Shown here piece after piece: positions 30,081 to 37,940 of a stretch of DNA of 64,000 nt. The position numbers were made by a program, and so were the translations under genes. The first letter of the stretch is position 1. Each line of letters starts with the position of its first letter. The notes beneath the pieces were generated by a model. That model did not search any database. It was not told the DNA's origin and was given only the letters and a program-made list of their open reading frames with translations. The DNA is from Candidatus Saccharimonadia bacterium (GTDB lineage: Bacteria > Patescibacteriota > SICC01), in assembly GCA_025449535.1 (NCBI GenBank), contig JANWJF010000001.1:549136-613135 (forward strand). Direction: 5' to 3'.

Positions 30081-30590
30081 ATGCCGGCCTCCAAAATCAG
30101 TCTCGACCAGGCCAAGCCCAACAAATTGTTCTACGTGGTGGCAACGGCCATGCCATACCGTAAGTCCGACGGCCGGTGCTTGATCCTCAAGCGCGACGAA
30201 CGGGAGACCGCACACCCCGGCAAATGGGGCGTAACCGGCGGGAAGCTCGAGCACGAGGACTTCGACCTTGCCAAGCCGACCCGGATGAACGGCGATGTTT
30301 ACGATTTCCAGGGCGCGTTCGAAAAACTGTTACGGAAAGAGGCGAAAGAGGAAGCGGCGATCAAGCTCGGCGATGACTTCCGTTACTTGGGCAGCTTGGT
30401 ATTCGTGCGCCCGGACGAGACGCCGGTCGCGTTGTTCCAATTCGCCGCCGAATACGCCGGCGGAGACGTGAAGCCCGAAGTTGGCGGATTCACGGACTTT
30501 GCCTGGGTAAACGCCGAAGAAGTGAAGCAATACGATTGCATCGACGGCATCCATGATGAGGTCAGCCGGACGATCGCGGCGTTCGGGTAG
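30081..30590 (+). CDS. NUDIX hydrolase
   Basis: NUDIX box GAFEKLLRKEAKEEAAI (GX5EX7REUXEEXGU-like). Confidence 0.75.
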   Translation: MPASKISLDQAKPNKLFYVVATAMPYRKSDGRCLILKRDERETAHPGKWGVTGGKLEHEDFDLAKPTRMNGDVYDFQGAFEKLLRKEAKEEAAIKLGDDFRYLGSLVFVRPDETPVALFQFAAEYAGGDVKPEVGGFTDFAWVNAEEVKQYDCIDGIHDEVSRTIAAFG

Positions 30591-30612
30591 GTCGAGCGGT
30601 ATACTGAAGGCC

Positions 30613-32400
30613 GTGCTGAATCAGAAGCAGATCGCCGCGTACCGGAAGCACCCCGCGTTCACCGATCCGCGGGTATCCTCCTCCGCGACCCGCCGCACCG
30701 TGCCGCCGGACCTCTGGCGGTTGCTGGAAGCGACGCCGGGACTGATTACCTGGGGCATCCTGCTCGGCAGCGCCGCGCTGTCGATCTTCATGCCGCGCTG
30801 GGTCGCCTACGCGATCCTCATGTTCGACGTCTATTGGCTGGTGAAGTCGGTGACGCTGTCCGGCAACCTGATTCGGGCGTACCAGCATCTCCGCCGGGAT
30901 ACCCGCATCGACTGGAGCAACCGCCTCAAGGCCCTGGAGCGTAGCATCGATTCGCACGCCGCGACCCTCAGCAGGGTGATCCGTCGGATTGACGGCGGAC
31001 GTACGGGAATTCGCAAATGGCTCTGGCTCCGCCGCGTCGACCTGACGAACCGGCGGTTAGCCCGGGATTACCGGGACCTGGGGATCGAGCTCGCCCAAGT
31101 CCGGACCGCGATAGAGTCGGACACGCCGTCACCACGGGCATCCCGCATCCATCATCTGGTCGTCGTCGCGACGTATACCGAGGAGCTCGAGACGCTCCGC
31201 CCGAGCTTCCAGGCGCTCGTGGAGTCGACTTACGACCCCAAGCGGATGATCATCGTGCTGGCCACGGAAGAGCGCGACAAGCGCCGGGCGCAGGCGAACG
31301 CCCGCGTCCTCAAACGCGAGTTCGGGAGCCGGTTCAAGAAGTTCATCGTCACCGAACACCCGTCGAACATCACCGGCGAGGTGAAGGGCAAGGGTAGCAA
31401 CATCAACTGGGCCGGCCGGAAGGCGATCGCGGAGATCGACAAGCTCGGCATCCCGCACGAAGAGGTGATCGTGACCACGCTGGACGCCGACCACCGGCCG
31501 CACCCGCAGTACTTCGCGGCCGTGACCTACCAGTACCTGCTCGAGCCGGACCGGCGCCACCGCAGCTTCCAGCCGACGCCGCTGTTCCATAACAACCTCT
31601 GGTACACGACCGCGATCAACCGCGTGCTGTCCACCGGTTCGTCCTTCTGGCACATGATCGAGTCCACGCGGCCCTGGCGGCTCCGGAACTTCGCGGCGCA
31701 TTCACAGGGGCTCCAGACCGTGGTCGATACCGACTTCTGGTCGATCGACACCATCGTCGAGGACGGCCAGCAATATTGGCGGACGTACTTCCGCTACGAT
31801 GGCCGGCACTTCGTGCAGCCGGTATACGTGCCGGTGTACCAAGACGCGGTCCTCGGCGACACCTATCCCGGGACGCTCAAGGAGCAGTACCTCCAACTCC
31901 GGCGCTGGGCCTACGGCGCTTCCGACTTCCCGTACGCCGTCGTGAACGCCTGGCGGAACCCGCGCATCTCACTCGGCAACAAGCTGCTCCAAATCGGCCG
32001 CTTCCTGGAGGGTCACGTCACCTGGGCGGTCGCGCCGATCCTGATCACGTTCGTCGGCTGGTTCCCGATCTACCTATCCCCGGCGTTCCGGGAGACGTTG
32101 TTCGGCCAGACCCTGGCTCCTACCGCGAGTTTCATCCTGACCCTGGCCTTGGTCGGGATCATCGTGACGATCCTGATCTCCCTGCTGCTGCTGCCGCCGA
32201 AGCCGCCCGGATACAAGGAGCGCCACCGGTTGCTGCACGTCGCGCAATGGGTGTTGATGCCGGTGACGACGATCATCTTCTCCAGCCTGCCGGCGATCGA
32301 GTCGCAGACCCGGCTGATCTTCGGGCGCTACCTGGAGTTCCGGGTCACACGGAAACGGACCAAGGCGCTGCGGACGCTGGAGCGCCGGGCCAAGGCCTAG
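30613..32400 (+). CDS. processive family-2 membrane glycosyltransferase (cellulose/chitin-synthase-like, QxxRW)
   Basis: DxD-like TLDADHRP and QLRRWAYG (QxxRW), with N- and C-terminal TM clusters. The start is GTG 30613, or alternatively ATG 30553 overlapping the NUDIX gene. Confidence 0.75.
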   Translation: MLNQKQIAAYRKHPAFTDPRVSSSATRRTVPPDLWRLLEATPGLITWGILLGSAALSIFMPRWVAYAILMFDVYWLVKSVTLSGNLIRAYQHLRRDTRIDWSNRLKALERSIDSHAATLSRVIRRIDGGRTGIRKWLWLRRVDLTNRRLARDYRDLGIELAQVRTAIESDTPSPRASRIHHLVVVATYTEELETLRPSFQALVESTYDPKRMIIVLATEERDKRRAQANARVLKREFGSRFKKFIVTEHPSNITGEVKGKGSNINWAGRKAIAEIDKLGIPHEEVIVTTLDADHRPHPQYFAAVTYQYLLEPDRRHRSFQPTPLFHNNLWYTTAINRVLSTGSSFWHMIESTRPWRLRNFAAHSQGLQTVVDTDFWSIDTIVEDGQQYWRTYFRYDGRHFVQPVYVPVYQDAVLGDTYPGTLKEQYLQLRRWAYGASDFPYAVVNAWRNPRISLGNKLLQIGRFLEGHVTWAVAPILITFVGWFPIYLSPAFRETLFGQTLAPTASFILTLALVGIIVTILISLLLLPPKPPGYKERHRLLHVAQWVLMPVTTIIFSSLPAIESQTRLIFGRYLEFRVTRKRTKALRTLERRAKA

Positions 32401-32401
32401 G

Positions 32402-34699
32402 CTACGGGGCGACGACCTTCAGCAGCATGTTGTACCCCGGGTCGGGGAACCAGGCCGCGCCATCTTGCACCAAGGAGAAGTACTCCCGGTAGGTGCCGGG
32501 CGCAGGAGCCGCGGTCAGGGGTACGCTGAACAGGGCGATCTGTCCCGGCTCGATCATGGTGTCGGCGCCGTTCACGGTCATGTTGCCGCTGAGGTCGGTG
32601 ACCGTGCCGTCTATCGTCGAAGCCCGGTTGGCGTTCAGCCACGGGTCACCGCCGGTGAGGGTCCGGAAGGCGGAGCTGCGGTTCTGCGGGTGGGTCGTCG
32701 CCAACCGGACGGGGTTGGTCCCGCTCGCGGACCAGGTGAGGCGGCCGGTATTCTTGATCGCGACCCGGGCGGTCATCGTGCTGTTCCGGGCGAAGGATTG
32801 CTGGTTCCCGGAGTAGACGGTCTTCATGAACTGGAGGTTCCGGGCGACCGCTACCGGTACGGGGAAGTTGATTCCGTAATCCTCGGGCAGCCAACCCACC
32901 CCGTCCATCACCGGTCGGACGTAGAGCCGGTAGTTGCCGGCGCCCAGGCTGTCCGGGATCGTGATCGTGAAGTCGAACTCGGCGACCTGACCGGGATCCA
33001 CCGTCGTATCCCCGGGCGCGCCCACCACGGAATCCACGGCCGACGGCCGGTTCCGGGCGATCCAGGGGTCGGGTCCCGTGGTAGTGATGAAGGCGGACTT
33101 GTGGTCCCGGGCCCGGTCGGTGCCGAGCCTGAGGTTGCCGTCCACCGGCCAGGCTTCCCGTCCGGTGTTCTTCAGGCGCACCGTGACGTCCTGCTCGGTC
33201 ACGCCTGGGGTGATCGTCGCGGGGTCGGCCGACTTGGACACGTACGAGTAGTGGTAGCCGCGGTCCAGGATGTTGAAGAGCACGGAACTGCCGGTATCGG
33301 ACATGTGCTTCTTGCCCTCGACCACCGGGGAGAAGTACTCCCGGATGTTGCCGACCTTGTCCGGCGTGGTGGTCACGAACGAGAAGACGGCGATCTCGCC
33401 GGTCGTGATCGTCGCGTCCGCCACCACGGAATCAGTTCCCGGATCGTACCGTCCGTCGATGGCGGAAGCCCGGTTCTTGTCCGGCCAGTTCTCCGAAGCG
33501 TCGATATCTCCCGCCCCGATCGTCCGGAAGGCGCTGGTGCGGTCCGTCGGCCGCCGGGTCGCCAGACGCACGGGGTTGGCCCCGCCGGCGTTCCATTGCA
33601 ACTCCCCGACGTTCCTGACCAGGATCTTCACGCTTCGCCGGTCACCGGGCAAGAGGCCGGAGGGCGAGGCCGTCGAATCGAGGTCCGTCGGCCCGGAGTC
33701 GGGTTCGGTGACGTAGGTCCCGTAGTGTTGGCCGCGCCAGTCCGGCGGCTTGATCGTCATGGTGGCGCAAAGGCCCAGGTCGCGCATCCAGCCCAGGTTC
33801 TCGACGACCGGCGCGAAGCACTCCGGGTAAGTGCCCGGGTTACCGCTCGACTTGAACGTCGCCCGGAACTGCGCCAGCTGGCCCGACGGCGTGTCGTCCA
33901 ATAGTTCGATCCGGTTGCGGGTCAGCCATCCCTCCGCGGTCCCGCCGTCCGAGAACCCGCTGCCGCGGTCCTGCGGCCGGTTGCCGCCGAGACGCACGGG
34001 CGTCGATCCGCCCTTCAGCCACGTCTGCCGTCCGGTGTTCCAAAGCTTGAAGGTCATCACGGACTCGCCGTTGCTGTTCATGGACCGGTTTCCGGAAATC
34101 GCGGCACCGACGTAGTCGTAGTTGGAACGTCGGTCGTTCACGTACTTGCCCGATGCGACCCAGCCGGCGCAGCAACTCGGCTCGTACCCGTGGATGGTGT
34201 GGTCGTAGGAACCGGTCCCGGCCTTGTAGGTGGCCTGTCGGATCCCGAAGTGGGTGTGCGGATCCCAGTTGCCGTTTACCGATCCGCGCGGTCCGACCGT
34301 CCCGATGCGCTGGCCTTTCTTGACCGTCGCCCCGGCCCCGACGCGCCGGTCGTTGTTGAGGTGCCCGTAGAGGCTCAGGATCGAGCTGCTCTTCCAGCTA
34401 TGCTGGATGATGATCAGATTGCCCCAACGGTACGAGTCGGGCGTCCGGGCCGAGTACTTCACGACGCCGTCGGCTGCGGCGAACACCGGGATGCCGTCGT
34501 TATGACAGACGTCCTCCGCGACGTGATATCCCCACCCCCCGATGTACTGGCCGTACGCGTAATTCGGCGTCCCGTACGGGAAGCAGGGAATCTGGAACGA
34601 GGACGCGGCCTTGGCGTCCGCGGGCCCGACCGTCAGCACGAAGGCGGCCGCGGTGATCGCGGCGGCCGTGCCGAGCAAGAATGTCAGTATTGATTTCAA
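32402..34699 (-). CDS. secreted M23 (LytM-type) metallopeptidase followed by four ~120-aa repeats of an unrecognised domain
   Basis: Signal peptide. M23 motifs HVAEDV…GHLNNDRRVGAGATVKKGQRIGTVG…HTHFGI. The repeat consensus is NTG..xW..GG.NPVRLGT.RP.DRSSAF…NRAS.IDG…PGQ.A.F.F…PG.YREYF.PV.EG..W. The start is TTG. Confidence 0.8.
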   Translation of the reverse strand: MKSILTFLLGTAAAITAAAFVLTVGPADAKAASSFQIPCFPYGTPNYAYGQYIGGWGYHVAEDVCHNDGIPVFAAADGVVKYSARTPDSYRWGNLIIIQHSWKSSSILSLYGHLNNDRRVGAGATVKKGQRIGTVGPRGSVNGNWDPHTHFGIRQATYKAGTGSYDHTIHGYEPSCCAGWVASGKYVNDRRSNYDYVGAAISGNRSMNSNGESVMTFKLWNTGRQTWLKGGSTPVRLGGNRPQDRGSGFSDGGTAEGWLTRNRIELLDDTPSGQLAQFRATFKSSGNPGTYPECFAPVVENLGWMRDLGLCATMTIKPPDWRGQHYGTYVTEPDSGPTDLDSTASPSGLLPGDRRSVKILVRNVGELQWNAGGANPVRLATRRPTDRTSAFRTIGAGDIDASENWPDKNRASAIDGRYDPGTDSVVADATITTGEIAVFSFVTTTPDKVGNIREYFSPVVEGKKHMSDTGSSVLFNILDRGYHYSYVSKSADPATITPGVTEQDVTVRLKNTGREAWPVDGNLRLGTDRARDHKSAFITTTGPDPWIARNRPSAVDSVVGAPGDTTVDPGQVAEFDFTITIPDSLGAGNYRLYVRPVMDGVGWLPEDYGINFPVPVAVARNLQFMKTVYSGNQQSFARNSTMTARVAIKNTGRLTWSASGTNPVRLATTHPQNRSSAFRTLTGGDPWLNANRASTIDGTVTDLSGNMTVNGADTMIEPGQIALFSVPLTAAPAPGTYREYFSLVQDGAAWFPDPGYNMLLKVVAP

Positions 34700-34761
34700 G
34701 ATAGTAGGAGCGTTACTCCAGTCCTACCAAATATGAGGTATGGCTACAATCGAGCAACCGC

Positions 34762-37488
34762 TCAATCGCTGGCCTGGGGCGATCCGACGACGCTGCCTGA
34801 CACCACCAGGCTGTGGTCCGGGAACCAGGCCCGATTCTCCTGGACCAACCGGAAGTATTCGTTGAAGTGGCCGACGGTGCTGGCGGTGACGGTGAAGTTG
34901 AACAGGGCCGTCTCGCCGGGCAGGATCTCCGTGGCCGGGGTCGAATCGAAGGTCGTGACGTTGAGCACGCGGCCGTCGATCCCGGACGCTCGATTTGCCG
35001 AGAGCCAGGGGTCTTCGCCGGCCAGTGTCGCGAACGAGGAAGACCGGTCCGTCGGGCGGGCGGTGCCCAACCGGACGCGATTGACGCCGCTGACGGGCCA
35101 AGCGTACCGTCCCGTGTTCTTCACCGCGAGCTGGACCACGGCGGTGTCGCCCGTGCGCAGGTCACTCAGGTTCCGGGAGGCGGATTGTCCTACCACCCGG
35201 TAGTCGTAGGTCTGGGCGGTGACGTTCAGTGGCACGGAGATGCCGCGGTCGGGGAACCAGGCCTCGCCCTCGCGGACCAAGTTGAACCGCTCCGTGCGCG
35301 CGCCGCCCTCGACCTCGGAGCTCACCTGCATCGGCACGTTGAACTGCGCGATTTCTCCCTGCTTGATCTCGGCCGCGCCTGTATCCAGGGAATCGCCGTC
35401 AACGCGCCCGTCGATCCCGGAGGCCCGGGTCGGCGAGAACCAAGCGTCGGCGCCGGTCAGCGCGGCGAAGGCCGAGGAGCGATCCTGGGGTCCGCTGGTC
35501 CCGAGCCGGACCGGACTCGGGCCGTCCACCGGCCACGGCACGTGGCCGTGATTCCGAATCCGGACGGTGGCGGTGACCGTGTCACCGTAGCCGAGGTCCG
35601 CCGGGTTCTGTGAGTAACGTTGGCTGACCACCCCGTAGTCGTAGTCCCCGGAGCGCACGGTGACCGGGACATACTTGTCCGATTCCCGCAGCCACTCCTT
35701 GCCGTCGATCACCGGTCGGAAGTACTCGCGATATGACCCGTCCGGCTTGGAGGCCGACTTCACCTGGAAGTCGAACCGGGCGATCTGGCCGGGGTCGACC
35801 ACGTCCTCGGCCGGCGCGTCGGCCACGGCGTCGATGGTGCTGGCCCGGCTGGCGGAGATCCAGTCCGGGCCCCGGAACGCGGATGACCGGTCGCGTTTCC
35901 GATCGGTGCCGAGCCGGAGCGGACCGCCGACCTTCCATGAGGACTGGCCGCTGTTCCGGATGTAGACCCGAGCCGTCTCGGTGTCGCCGCCGAGGGATAT
36001 CGGATCAGGGTCGTCCTGCTTCACCCATGCGTAATGGTTGCCCTTGGGCAGCACGCGCAAGCCGAAGTGAAGGTTGGCATCCAGCCAACGATCGCCCTCG
36101 ATTACCGGCCGGAAATGCTCGCGGTACTCGCCCGACTTGCTGGGAGACTTGACAGTGAACGAGAAGACGCCGATCTGTCCCGGCTTCACGGCGGACGCGG
36201 GGGTGATCCGGCTCTCCGACGGGATGTAGATGCCGTCCAGTTTGGACGCGCGGTTCCCGGCAAGCCATCCTTCGCTGCCGGGTACCCGGCCGCCGGACTT
36301 CACGGCGAACCCGCTGCGCCGGTCGCGGCGATGCTCGGTCCCGAGCCGTACGGGATGCTTGCCGCCCGCGTTCCAGGCGAAGTCGCCGGTGTTCTTAATG
36401 TAGGCTTTCAGGTTCACGAGGGTGCCGCCGGCCAAATACCGGTGCGTGTCCGTCCGGGTCAGGGAGACCGGGGAGAGGTCGTCATGGGCCGTGACGCGGT
36501 AGCCTTGGGCTCCGTACCGCGGCAAGCGGACCGTCACCTTAGCGTGCATACCGGTGTCCCGCATCCAGCCGACGCCTTCCACGACTGGCCGGAAGTACTT
36601 ATGGTACGTCCCCGGCTTCACTCCCTTGTTGTTGAACCGCGCCCGGAAGACGGCGGTCTGGCCGGGGGCGGTGTCGGACTGCATCTCGATCCGGCTGGGA
36701 TTCAGCCAGCCGTGTCCGCCCATGCCGGCCGAGAAGGCGGTGCGGTGGTCTCGCGGACGGTCGGTCCCGAGCCGTACGGGGTTGGCGCCGCCCTTGCTCC
36801 AGGTTGCGGTGCCGGTGTTCCGCAGGCGGAACTCGACCCAGTATTCCGAGGACTTGCCCTGAACGGTGGCCCCGGTCTGCGAGATATGGCTGTAGTTATA
36901 CGTCGGCTGCCGCACCTGACGGTTCTGGATATAGCGGGTCGGGTGGGTGTAGCGGTTGATCTCTCCACCGCGCTCGTACCCGTTGATCAGGGACCAGTAG
37001 CTTCCGGTCGCCGTGCCGTAAGACCCGGGCGTGATCGAGAAGTGGAGGTGCGCTCCCCAGCGGCCGTTCTCCCGGGTGTGTCCTGGGCCGATGGTACCGA
37101 TCCGTTGGCCCTTGCCGACCCGCTGTCCGGCGCTGACCCGGCGGTCGTTGCCAAGGTGTCCGTACAGCCCGACCGCCCGCGACCCGTCGTCATGTTCGAT
37201 CATGATCAGGTTGCCCCAGCGCCAGGAGTCCGGCGTGAGCGCAGAGTACTTCACCGTGCCATCGGCGATCGCGTAGACCGGTGTCCCGGCCCGGCACCCG
37301 ATGTCCTGCCCGGAGTGATACCCCCAACCGGAGACGAACTGGCGGAAGTCGTAGCCGGACAAGCGCCAGGGGGAGCAGCCGTACTGGTACCCGGAAGCCG
37401 CGTGGCTGGGTCCGGCACCGACGAACGCCGCGGCGGCGATCAGGACCGCTGCCGTCATTCCCAGGATGAGTGTCTTCCGCCTATGCAT
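34762..37488 (-). CDS. secreted M23 metallopeptidase paralogue followed by ≥5 copies of the same ~120-aa repeat
   Basis: Signal peptide MHRRKTLILGMTAAVLIAAAAFVGAGPSHA. M23 core YHSGQDIG…GHLGNDRRVSAGQRVGKGQRIGTIG…HLHF. The repeats resemble those of the adjacent paralogue. Confidence 0.8.
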   Translation of the reverse strand: MHRRKTLILGMTAAVLIAAAAFVGAGPSHAASGYQYGCSPWRLSGYDFRQFVSGWGYHSGQDIGCRAGTPVYAIADGTVKYSALTPDSWRWGNLIMIEHDDGSRAVGLYGHLGNDRRVSAGQRVGKGQRIGTIGPGHTRENGRWGAHLHFSITPGSYGTATGSYWSLINGYERGGEINRYTHPTRYIQNRQVRQPTYNYSHISQTGATVQGKSSEYWVEFRLRNTGTATWSKGGANPVRLGTDRPRDHRTAFSAGMGGHGWLNPSRIEMQSDTAPGQTAVFRARFNNKGVKPGTYHKYFRPVVEGVGWMRDTGMHAKVTVRLPRYGAQGYRVTAHDDLSPVSLTRTDTHRYLAGGTLVNLKAYIKNTGDFAWNAGGKHPVRLGTEHRRDRRSGFAVKSGGRVPGSEGWLAGNRASKLDGIYIPSESRITPASAVKPGQIGVFSFTVKSPSKSGEYREHFRPVIEGDRWLDANLHFGLRVLPKGNHYAWVKQDDPDPISLGGDTETARVYIRNSGQSSWKVGGPLRLGTDRKRDRSSAFRGPDWISASRASTIDAVADAPAEDVVDPGQIARFDFQVKSASKPDGSYREYFRPVIDGKEWLRESDKYVPVTVRSGDYDYGVVSQRYSQNPADLGYGDTVTATVRIRNHGHVPWPVDGPSPVRLGTSGPQDRSSAFAALTGADAWFSPTRASGIDGRVDGDSLDTGAAEIKQGEIAQFNVPMQVSSEVEGGARTERFNLVREGEAWFPDRGISVPLNVTAQTYDYRVVGQSASRNLSDLRTGDTAVVQLAVKNTGRYAWPVSGVNRVRLGTARPTDRSSSFATLAGEDPWLSANRASGIDGRVLNVTTFDSTPATEILPGETALFNFTVTASTVGHFNEYFRLVQENRAWFPDHSLVVSGSVVGSPQASD

Positions 37489-37530
37489 ATGTTCGTTTCG
37501 TGCTCAGTATCCTTTCCGAAAAATTAGCTT

Positions 37531-37559
37531 AATATAGCAAAAAAATAGCACCTTGTCAA
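37531..37559 (-). promoter_or_regulatory. sigma70 consensus-like promoter TTGACA-N17-TATATT driving the 908-aa M23 gene
   Basis: Minus strand reads cTTGACAaggtgctatttttttgcTATATTaag, about 40 nt upstream of the ATG at 37488. Confidence 0.6.
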
Positions 37560-37940
37560 GTCCTTTAAGCTTGGTTGAGCTATTTTTTGATCACAACAAA
37601 CAGAGCCCCAGCGATTCGCTGGAGCCCTGTATCCCTCTCGGGGTTTTTGTTGACGGTACCCGGGTACCGATGAATTCTCACGGACGGCTTTTTGCCGCCA
37701 GCGATTTTTGTTTTCACTTCCTAGTGTACCTTGCCGGATTCAGGCAAAGGGCTTTTCGGGAAAAGTAAAATTGTCTTGGTTAAGGTAAAAAAGCATTTAC
37801 CGAACAAGGCTATTCCGGGTCCGACTGGGGAAAATCCCCTTCCTTCGGAAATAAAAAGCCATGTCAAGCGGTGTCCGGTGGCGGTCAGGAATATCTAGTG
37901 CACGCTTGCTTAGACCCTATTCCGAACGCGTACACTGGAA

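Follow-up and report, generated by a model that had tools for sequence, protein, structure and literature searches.

What does a pair of large, predicted secreted peptidoglycan hydrolases do for the bacterium that encodes them, and what do the tandem repeats in their C-terminal parts contribute? Two adjacent minus-strand genes, here called A and B, raise this question at 32402..37488 of a 64,000-nucleotide (nt) window (the whole stretch of DNA analysed) of Candidatus Saccharimonadia bacterium (GCA_025449535.1, contig JANWJF010000001.1). A preliminary description, made from the sequence, had regarded the repeat as unrecognised and the proteins as cell-wall-remodelling or offensive peptidoglycan hydrolases with a targeting module. 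The latter proposal is plausible, but the repeat, judged by profile evidence, is a divergent bacterial subfamily of PF16158 (N_BRCA1_IG, the FW domain of NBR1 and ILRUN). We consider it probable that A and B act as peptidoglycan endopeptidases after secretion and that their FW arrays serve as a wall-targeting or spacing module, with the organism's own wall as the most likely substrate. The genes, and the parts that bear on export and catalysis, are as follows:

32402..34699, minus strand: gene A, 765 amino acids (aa), TTG start; predicted secreted M23 peptidase with 4 FW-like units (open reading frame (ORF) plus Pfam PF01551 and PF16158)
34762..37488, minus strand: gene B, 908 aa, ATG start; predicted secreted M23 peptidase with 5 FW-like units (ORF plus Pfam PF01551 and PF16158)
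34613..34699, minus strand: predicted signal peptide of A, aa 1-29, site between ADA and KA (hydrophobic segment and AxA-type site)
37399..37488, minus strand: predicted signal peptide of B, aa 1-30, HRRK n-region, site between SHA and AS (sole hydrophobic 17-mer of the protein, then an AxA-type site)
34232..34525, minus strand: M23 domain of A, aa 59-156 (PF01551, 61.9 bits)
37030..37320, minus strand: M23 domain of B, aa 57-153 (PF01551, 73.1 bits; HxxxD and HxH present)

The two products are paralogues, as described earlier, and align from end to end at 42% identity. NCBI HEY8108941.1 (a 'peptidoglycan DD-metalloendopeptidase family protein' of a 'Patescibacteria group bacterium') has the same sequence as the product of gene B; the gene is carried on contigs of 681-813 kb, and its start ATG is kept in 5 loci; gene A appears in the JGI annotation in a 758-aa version (P0042). 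Homologues, where named, are labelled Patescibacteria, Saccharibacteria or Parcubacteria, and the taxonomic placement follows the NCBI names of such identical or related proteins. Long antisense ORFs of 266-497 aa lie opposite both genes (for example, 32465..33904 and 36034..37527, both on the plus strand), as expected in DNA with a guanine-plus-cytosine (GC) content of 62-67%; the Pfam matches, the homologues and the synteny are all in favour of the minus-strand frames.

Both N-terminal LytM/M23 domains match Peptidase_M23 above its cut-off of 28.7 bits (E 7e-17 for A and 2e-20 for B), and the HxxxD, GHL and HxH motifs reported in the preliminary description are intact in each (HVAED59-63, GHL112 and HTH148-150 in A, providing H59, D63, H113, H148 and H150; HSGQD58-62, GHL110 and HLH147-149 in B, providing H58, D62, H111, H147 and H149). 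These five zinc or catalytic positions are invariant across 45 homologues, and the closest sequence in the PDB is the M23 peptidase 6JMX (E 6.6e-10), with zoocin A and ShyA also matched, all three of them active M23 enzymes of known structure. Degenerate LytM factors such as EnvC and NlpD lack the zinc ligands and catalytic histidines. That A and B could be catalytically dead amidase activators of this kind is hinted at by weak similarity to the NCBIfam models of ActS, NlpD and EnvC, but all of these fall far below their cut-offs, and the intact catalytic residues lead us to exclude so improbable a reading. Also in this region, a 'PC.PY' cysteine just N-terminal of the M23 domain is nearly invariant among the 45 homologues (aa 39 in A, aa 38 in B), and a second cysteine at aa 65 is common to both proteins (pairs at ~34505-34585 and ~37294-37377); the two may form a disulfide in the secreted catalytic domain. 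Consistent with export, and with the signal peptides proposed earlier, the sole hydrophobic segment of each protein is N-terminal and precedes an AxA-type site. No further hydrophobic or transmembrane segment and no C-terminal sorting signal was found in either, and the predicted mature proteins are basic (isoelectric points of 8.1 and 9.6).

The remainder of each protein is dominated by the repeat, whose units were located by hmmsearch of a unit profile against the six-frame translation:

33731-34123, 33248-33691, 32834-33253 and 32405-32839 (array 32405..34123), minus strand: units 1-4 of A
36508-36900, 36031-36480, 35635-36036, 35200-35640 and 34768-35205 (array 34768..36900), minus strand: units 1-5 of B

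The profile hidden Markov model (HMM) counts exactly four units in A, as had been proposed, and exactly five in B, for which 'at least five' proved too loose (per-unit E of 1e-41 to 1e-47); across the six frames of the window, it finds no match outside the two genes. The tandem repeats are thus real, although the 115-130 aa first assigned to them was too short (131-150 aa as measured here). Pairwise identity among units is 26-46%, and their 13 invariant columns (N, G, W, G, R, L, F, W, R, G, F, G and V) reproduce the consensus drawn up in the preliminary description. Units are orthologous by position (A1 with B1, A2 with B2, A3 with B3, and A4 with B4/B5, the last two being mutually closest at 46%), indicating that the array is older than the gene duplication, that B gained or A lost one terminal unit, and that the array is old and fixed, with no recent expansion. 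An AlphaFold2 model of unit A4, with a predicted local distance difference test (pLDDT) score of 94.9 and a predicted TM-score of 0.88, forms a seven-strand beta-sandwich, consistent with the Ig-like fold for which such a model had been suggested as a check. In this model, a conserved, unstructured loop of ~22 residues (P.DR.S.F...W...NR) lies between strands 3 and 4, and a variable loop between strands 4 and 5.

Several lines of evidence place these units in PF16158. As whole proteins, A and B score 53.1 and 55.0 bits (cut-off 28), PF16158 is the top family for 8 of the 9 single units (the ninth has no match), and it is precomputed for nearly all homologues, with a 'faint' flag on the JGI matches. 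When 34 mutually diverse units of homologous proteins are taken, PF16158 is matched at E<=0.01 by 18 of them (the best at 2e-7), whereas any other family is matched by at most 2. Searched against 1.84 billion cluster representatives, a profile built from these units recovered 8,385 clusters at the E<=1e-3 level, of which 1,023 reach E<=1e-30, and the arrays extend to 15 units. Of these clusters, 58 were sampled, and all but one have a PF16158 match at E<=1e-5, the best being 7.8e-71. One protein (P0129) matches the unit profile over residues 269-391 and PF16158 over residues 276-376 (92.9 bits), an overlap that provides a transitive link between the units and the family. In profile searches of PDB sequences, the FW domain of human NBR1 (4OLE) ranked first (E 0.023, then 0.0033 with a deeper profile) and ILRUN (6VHI) second in the first search, with alignments covering the 'NTG..W' and 'PG..a.F.v...p..G.Y' motifs; in a Foldseek search of the PDB with the A4 model, ILRUN 6VHI scored highest whichever way the TM-score was normalised (TMq 0.52, TMt 0.66), followed by NBR1 4OLE (TMq 0.50, TMt 0.56-0.58), and C. 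thermophilum Nbr1 FW reached TMq 0.48. One or two of the four signature tryptophans of FW domains are kept: HMM alignments with 4OLE retain the tryptophan after 'NTG' (invariant W34), whereas the strand-2 tryptophan is aliphatic and the strand-6 tryptophan is F, Y or V ('EYF'). Another invariant tryptophan, W65, sits in the inserted loop. The preliminary description was right that the repeat is not LysM, SH3b, PG_binding_1, SLH or CW_binding (no Pfam match at E<=1 in A, B or single units), but it had also held that a match to a well-described Pfam family would refute novelty, and PF16158 is in essence such a match, with single units remaining sub-threshold. On the evidence of whole proteins, diverse units and sampled clusters, we reject the idea of a novel family.

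What the array does is a separate question. In the full-length model of A (pLDDT 90.4; low in the N-terminal helix), the M23 domain is followed by four beta-sandwiches, and the structural neighbours of the model are multi-Ig stalks, among them integrin legs, PrgB Ig domains, S-layer proteins and HYDIN. Such a string of sandwiches would suit a passive rod that spans the envelope or S-layer without a specific ligand, a view that partly overlaps with our own. Nevertheless, the most conserved positions are not confined to the core but include the ~22-residue loop between strands 3 and 4, which is kept in thousands of clusters and points to a functional site more than to simple spacing, and we regard a purely passive role as rather unlikely. 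Arrays of 2-5 FW units, usually C-terminal, also occur in Patescibacteria on M23, Amidase_2, SpoIID and Peptidase_S8 (subtilase) domains, confirming a co-occurrence with other catalytic domains for which the preliminary description had advised a search. We propose, tentatively and with somewhat less than even confidence, that the PF16158 array is a true cell-wall- or surface-binding module, the main means of targeting for the M23, amidase, SpoIID and subtilase enzymes of Patescibacteria, with its ligand site in the P.DR.S.F...W...NR loop. Were this so, it would be the first function for bacterial FW domains and would point to a prokaryotic envelope-binding domain as the ancestor of the FW domain by which the autophagy receptor NBR1 binds its cargo.

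The genomic setting bears on where the enzymes act. On one side, the pair is flanked by an ATP synthase operon and a GT4 (MraY/WecA-type) glycosyltransferase and, on the other, by a GT2 glycosyltransferase, a NUDIX protein and a DnaA_C-domain protein. Six other loci, with gene-B homologues down to 45% identity, keep this arrangement of ATP synthase, GT4, spacer, five-unit M23-FW gene, four-unit M23-FW gene and GT2. Five of these six keep a second M23-FW gene alongside (one, L009, also has a third), and in the sixth (L010) a single M23-FW gene is followed directly by the gene in the GT2 position; several genomes hold 2-3 paralogues. In L009 (2550..9276 of a farmland contig, ENA ERZ1823575), three tandem M23-FW genes encode 908, 987 and 812 aa, with a PA14 domain inserted in the middle one, indicating that the family grows by tandem duplication and gains extra binding domains. 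M23 domains do occur in some phage tail proteins, and Gp16 (9M7N) is among the PDB sequence matches, so a lysin or tail-associated hydrolase derived from a phage or mobile element might be considered. However, there are no phage genes around the pair, the GC of A and B (0.62-0.67) differs little from that of the other parts of the window and of the surrounding genome, and seven related genomes share the chromosomal site, with the ATP synthase operon on one side and GT2 on the other. The locus is not a prophage or island, and this context excludes a phage origin, to which we give the least credence of the readings considered here.

The near-consensus promoter ascribed to the longer gene in the preliminary description was recovered at this position:

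37531..37559, minus strand: predicted promoter of gene B (probably of a B-A operon), TTGACA-N17-TG-n-TATATT (consensus scan, 11/12 matches; conservation)

It lies 43 nt 5' of the gene B ATG and carries a TG extension. By chance, 0.8 such matches would be expected in 6.2 kb, where one was observed, but CTTGACA and TGCTAnAnT are invariant and at the same position in all seven aligned homologous spacers, and this invariance of the -35 hexamer and extended -10 element marks the promoter as more than a chance match. The gap between B and A is 62 nt (38-136 nt in related loci) with no terminator-like site found in it, and the two genes are likely to be co-transcribed. Downstream, the convergent GT2 gene (30553..32400, plus strand) and gene A end one base apart; no terminator was detected between them on either strand, and the spacing leaves no room for one.

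Taken together, we envisage B and A as a constitutively expressed two-gene unit of a Patescibacteria (candidate phyla radiation, CPR) chromosome of ~0.8 Mb, whose products would be exported via the Sec pathway with cleavable signal peptides. The N-terminal LytM-type M23 zinc endopeptidase domain would cut peptide cross-links of peptidoglycan, and the non-catalytic C-terminal array of four or five FW units would position or retain the enzyme in the cell envelope by wall binding and spacing, as a generic envelope-targeting or spacing module of the phylum that may serve amidases, SpoIID-type lytic enzymes and subtilases in the same way. The organism's own wall, in growth and division, would be the most likely substrate; the synteny with housekeeping genes, a strong promoter that does not vary and the rigid arrangement of the units favour this assignment. 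The main alternative is that A and B are host-directed offensive hydrolases, with the FW array binding the surface of a bacterial host or prey and the M23 domain opening its wall for nutrients or attachment. The organism is a Patescibacteria metagenome-assembled genome with contigs of ~0.8 Mb, attack on a host would suit an episymbiotic lifestyle, the catalytic domain is secreted without an anchor, there are 2-3 paralogues per genome, some with PA14 or other extra binding domains, and published proposals assign the breakdown of host walls to peptidoglycan hydrolases and M23 peptidases that CPR bacteria secrete (PMC8080830, PMC9530719). Against this stand the location of the genes within conserved housekeeping and envelope-biosynthesis synteny, behind an invariant, strong sigma-70-type promoter; a unit architecture that is rigid in relatives down to 45% identity, whereas host-recognition modules usually diversify; and the lack of an evident immunity gene beside the pair. 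On balance, we think host-directed action unlikely, although it deserves more weight than the other alternatives.

Some observations nonetheless weigh against self-directed, wall-targeted endopeptidases. Patescibacteria are largely episymbionts, so a host wall would be an equally accessible substrate. Single units of A and B score only 13-25 bits against PF16158, below the cut-off of 28, and the structural matches of the A4 model are weak (no E below 2e-3) and include many generic Ig-like folds beside the FW structures, with NPC2 and YcnI at similar TMq. Both signal-peptide cleavage and B-A co-transcription are predicted from sequence alone. Finally, peptidoglycan binding by a bacterial FW domain is a putative role, and the ligands defined for FW domains are all proteins (MAP1B, TAX1BP1 and Ams1; PMC9582228, PMC9233695).

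The spacer upstream of gene B holds a further conserved element, a candidate small RNA of ~120 nt (roughly 37597..37722, minus strand), in the interval ~37597..37730 between the gene B promoter and the divergent GT4 gene. The spacer is 82% identical to that of a relative whose gene-B protein is ~70% identical, with ~125 nt nearly identical, and its DNA is better conserved than the flanking genes and proteins. In the layout that seven loci share, the TAsACT box is invariant and is accompanied by an A-rich stretch, GAAAACAAAAA, by three short hairpins, among them the palindrome GGTACC-CG-GGTACC and CCC-GAGA-GGG, and by a terminator hairpin of 14 bp that a U-run follows. Conserved G.U pairs fit the minus strand only, and 86% of cells are paired, compared with 28-47% when partners are slid (7 sequences); covariation is modest, with six pairs showing double changes in the 7 sequences, a number reached by 29 of 500 shuffles. 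According to a covariance model, each related locus holds a single copy. In metagenomes, a first pattern found no further copies, and a second found 8 loci, none of which fits the covariance model. A riboswitch or other known RNA was rejected, as the 450-nt leader region has no Rfam match at gathering score or E<=1, as was a small ORF, given indels that are not multiples of three and an in-frame stop in one relative. A long-range pairing of the TACACT box with the GGTACC palindrome, proposed by RNAalifold, has no compensatory support, and we read TAsACT as a -10 box instead. The element may thus be a clade-specific small RNA, a candidate for which the evidence, from seven sequences, is thin. 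Further upstream, a block at ~37740..37900 (minus strand) with a second CTTGACA and a hairpin-like 'GGGGATTTTCCCC' / 'CGGAATAGC.TTGTTCGG' is conserved in the four closest loci and missing from more distant ones, whose spacers are shorter; it may represent a plus-strand promoter or leader of the GT4 gene, or an extension of the RNA.

The locus does not define a new class of system, as both domains are catalogued and NCBI already names A and B as M23 or peptidoglycan DD-metalloendopeptidase family proteins. What it adds is the occurrence of FW domains in Patescibacteria as fixed tandem arrays on predicted secreted peptidoglycan hydrolases, a pair to which genomes of ~0.8 Mb devote ~5 kb at a conserved housekeeping position behind an invariant strong promoter. 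A and B are accordingly tractable candidates for the wall-turnover or host-interface machinery of an uncultivated phylum, and wall binding offers a concrete hypothesis for a domain that, apart from this, is known from eukaryotic autophagy receptors alone. Full-text literature on PF16158, N_BRCA1_IG or the NBR1-like domain yielded eukaryotic work only, and the M23-FW architecture was not found described in literature on M23 or peptidoglycan hydrolases of Patescibacteria or Saccharibacteria.

Among known systems, A and B, which belong to PF01551 and to a divergent branch of PF16158, would work like modular LytM/lysostaphin-type hydrolases (lysostaphin, with M23 and SH3b; zoocin A; ShyA; Campylobacter jejuni Pgp3, 6JMX): those enzymes are likewise secreted, carry HxxxD and HxH, and combine catalytic with non-catalytic modules. 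They differ in that the accessory module of A and B comprises 4-5 Ig-like PF16158 units rather than SH3b, LysM or LytM-N, and in the order of the parts, with catalysis at the N terminus and the accessory array at the C terminus. With the eukaryotic FW domain of NBR1 and ILRUN (CDD cd14947; PDB 4OLE, 6VHI and 7VQO), the units share the Pfam family, and their 'NTG..W' after strand 2 and 'PG...F.F...G.Y..F' in strands 5-6 align to 4OLE and 6VHI. The eukaryotic domain is shorter (~105-120 aa, compared with 131-150 aa for the units, which have loops inserted between strands 3-4 and 4-5) and is cytosolic, single-copy and bound to protein cargo (PMC9233695, PMC9582228), whereas the units of A and B are predicted to be extracellular and are tandem and fused to wall hydrolases. 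Bacterial FW domains have been on record since 2011-2012, in diverse architectures, often C-terminal, chiefly as XRE-FW regulators and with no known function (PMC3357945, PMC9582228, PMC9233695). The proteins of Marchbank et al. 2012 (PMC3357945) are members of PF16158 in which FW tends to the C terminus, as in A and B, but they mostly carry a single FW on cytoplasmic helix-turn-helix regulators of Proteobacteria, Actinobacteria and Chloroflexi, in contrast to the predicted secreted 4-5-unit arrays on the Patescibacteria hydrolases. Also comparable are database entries for Amidase_2-FW, SpoIID-FW-Peptidase_S8 and related proteins of Patescibacteria, predicted secreted, wall-active enzymes that bear the same repeat subtype as A and B in 2-5 units (up to 15) and differ in their catalytic domain.

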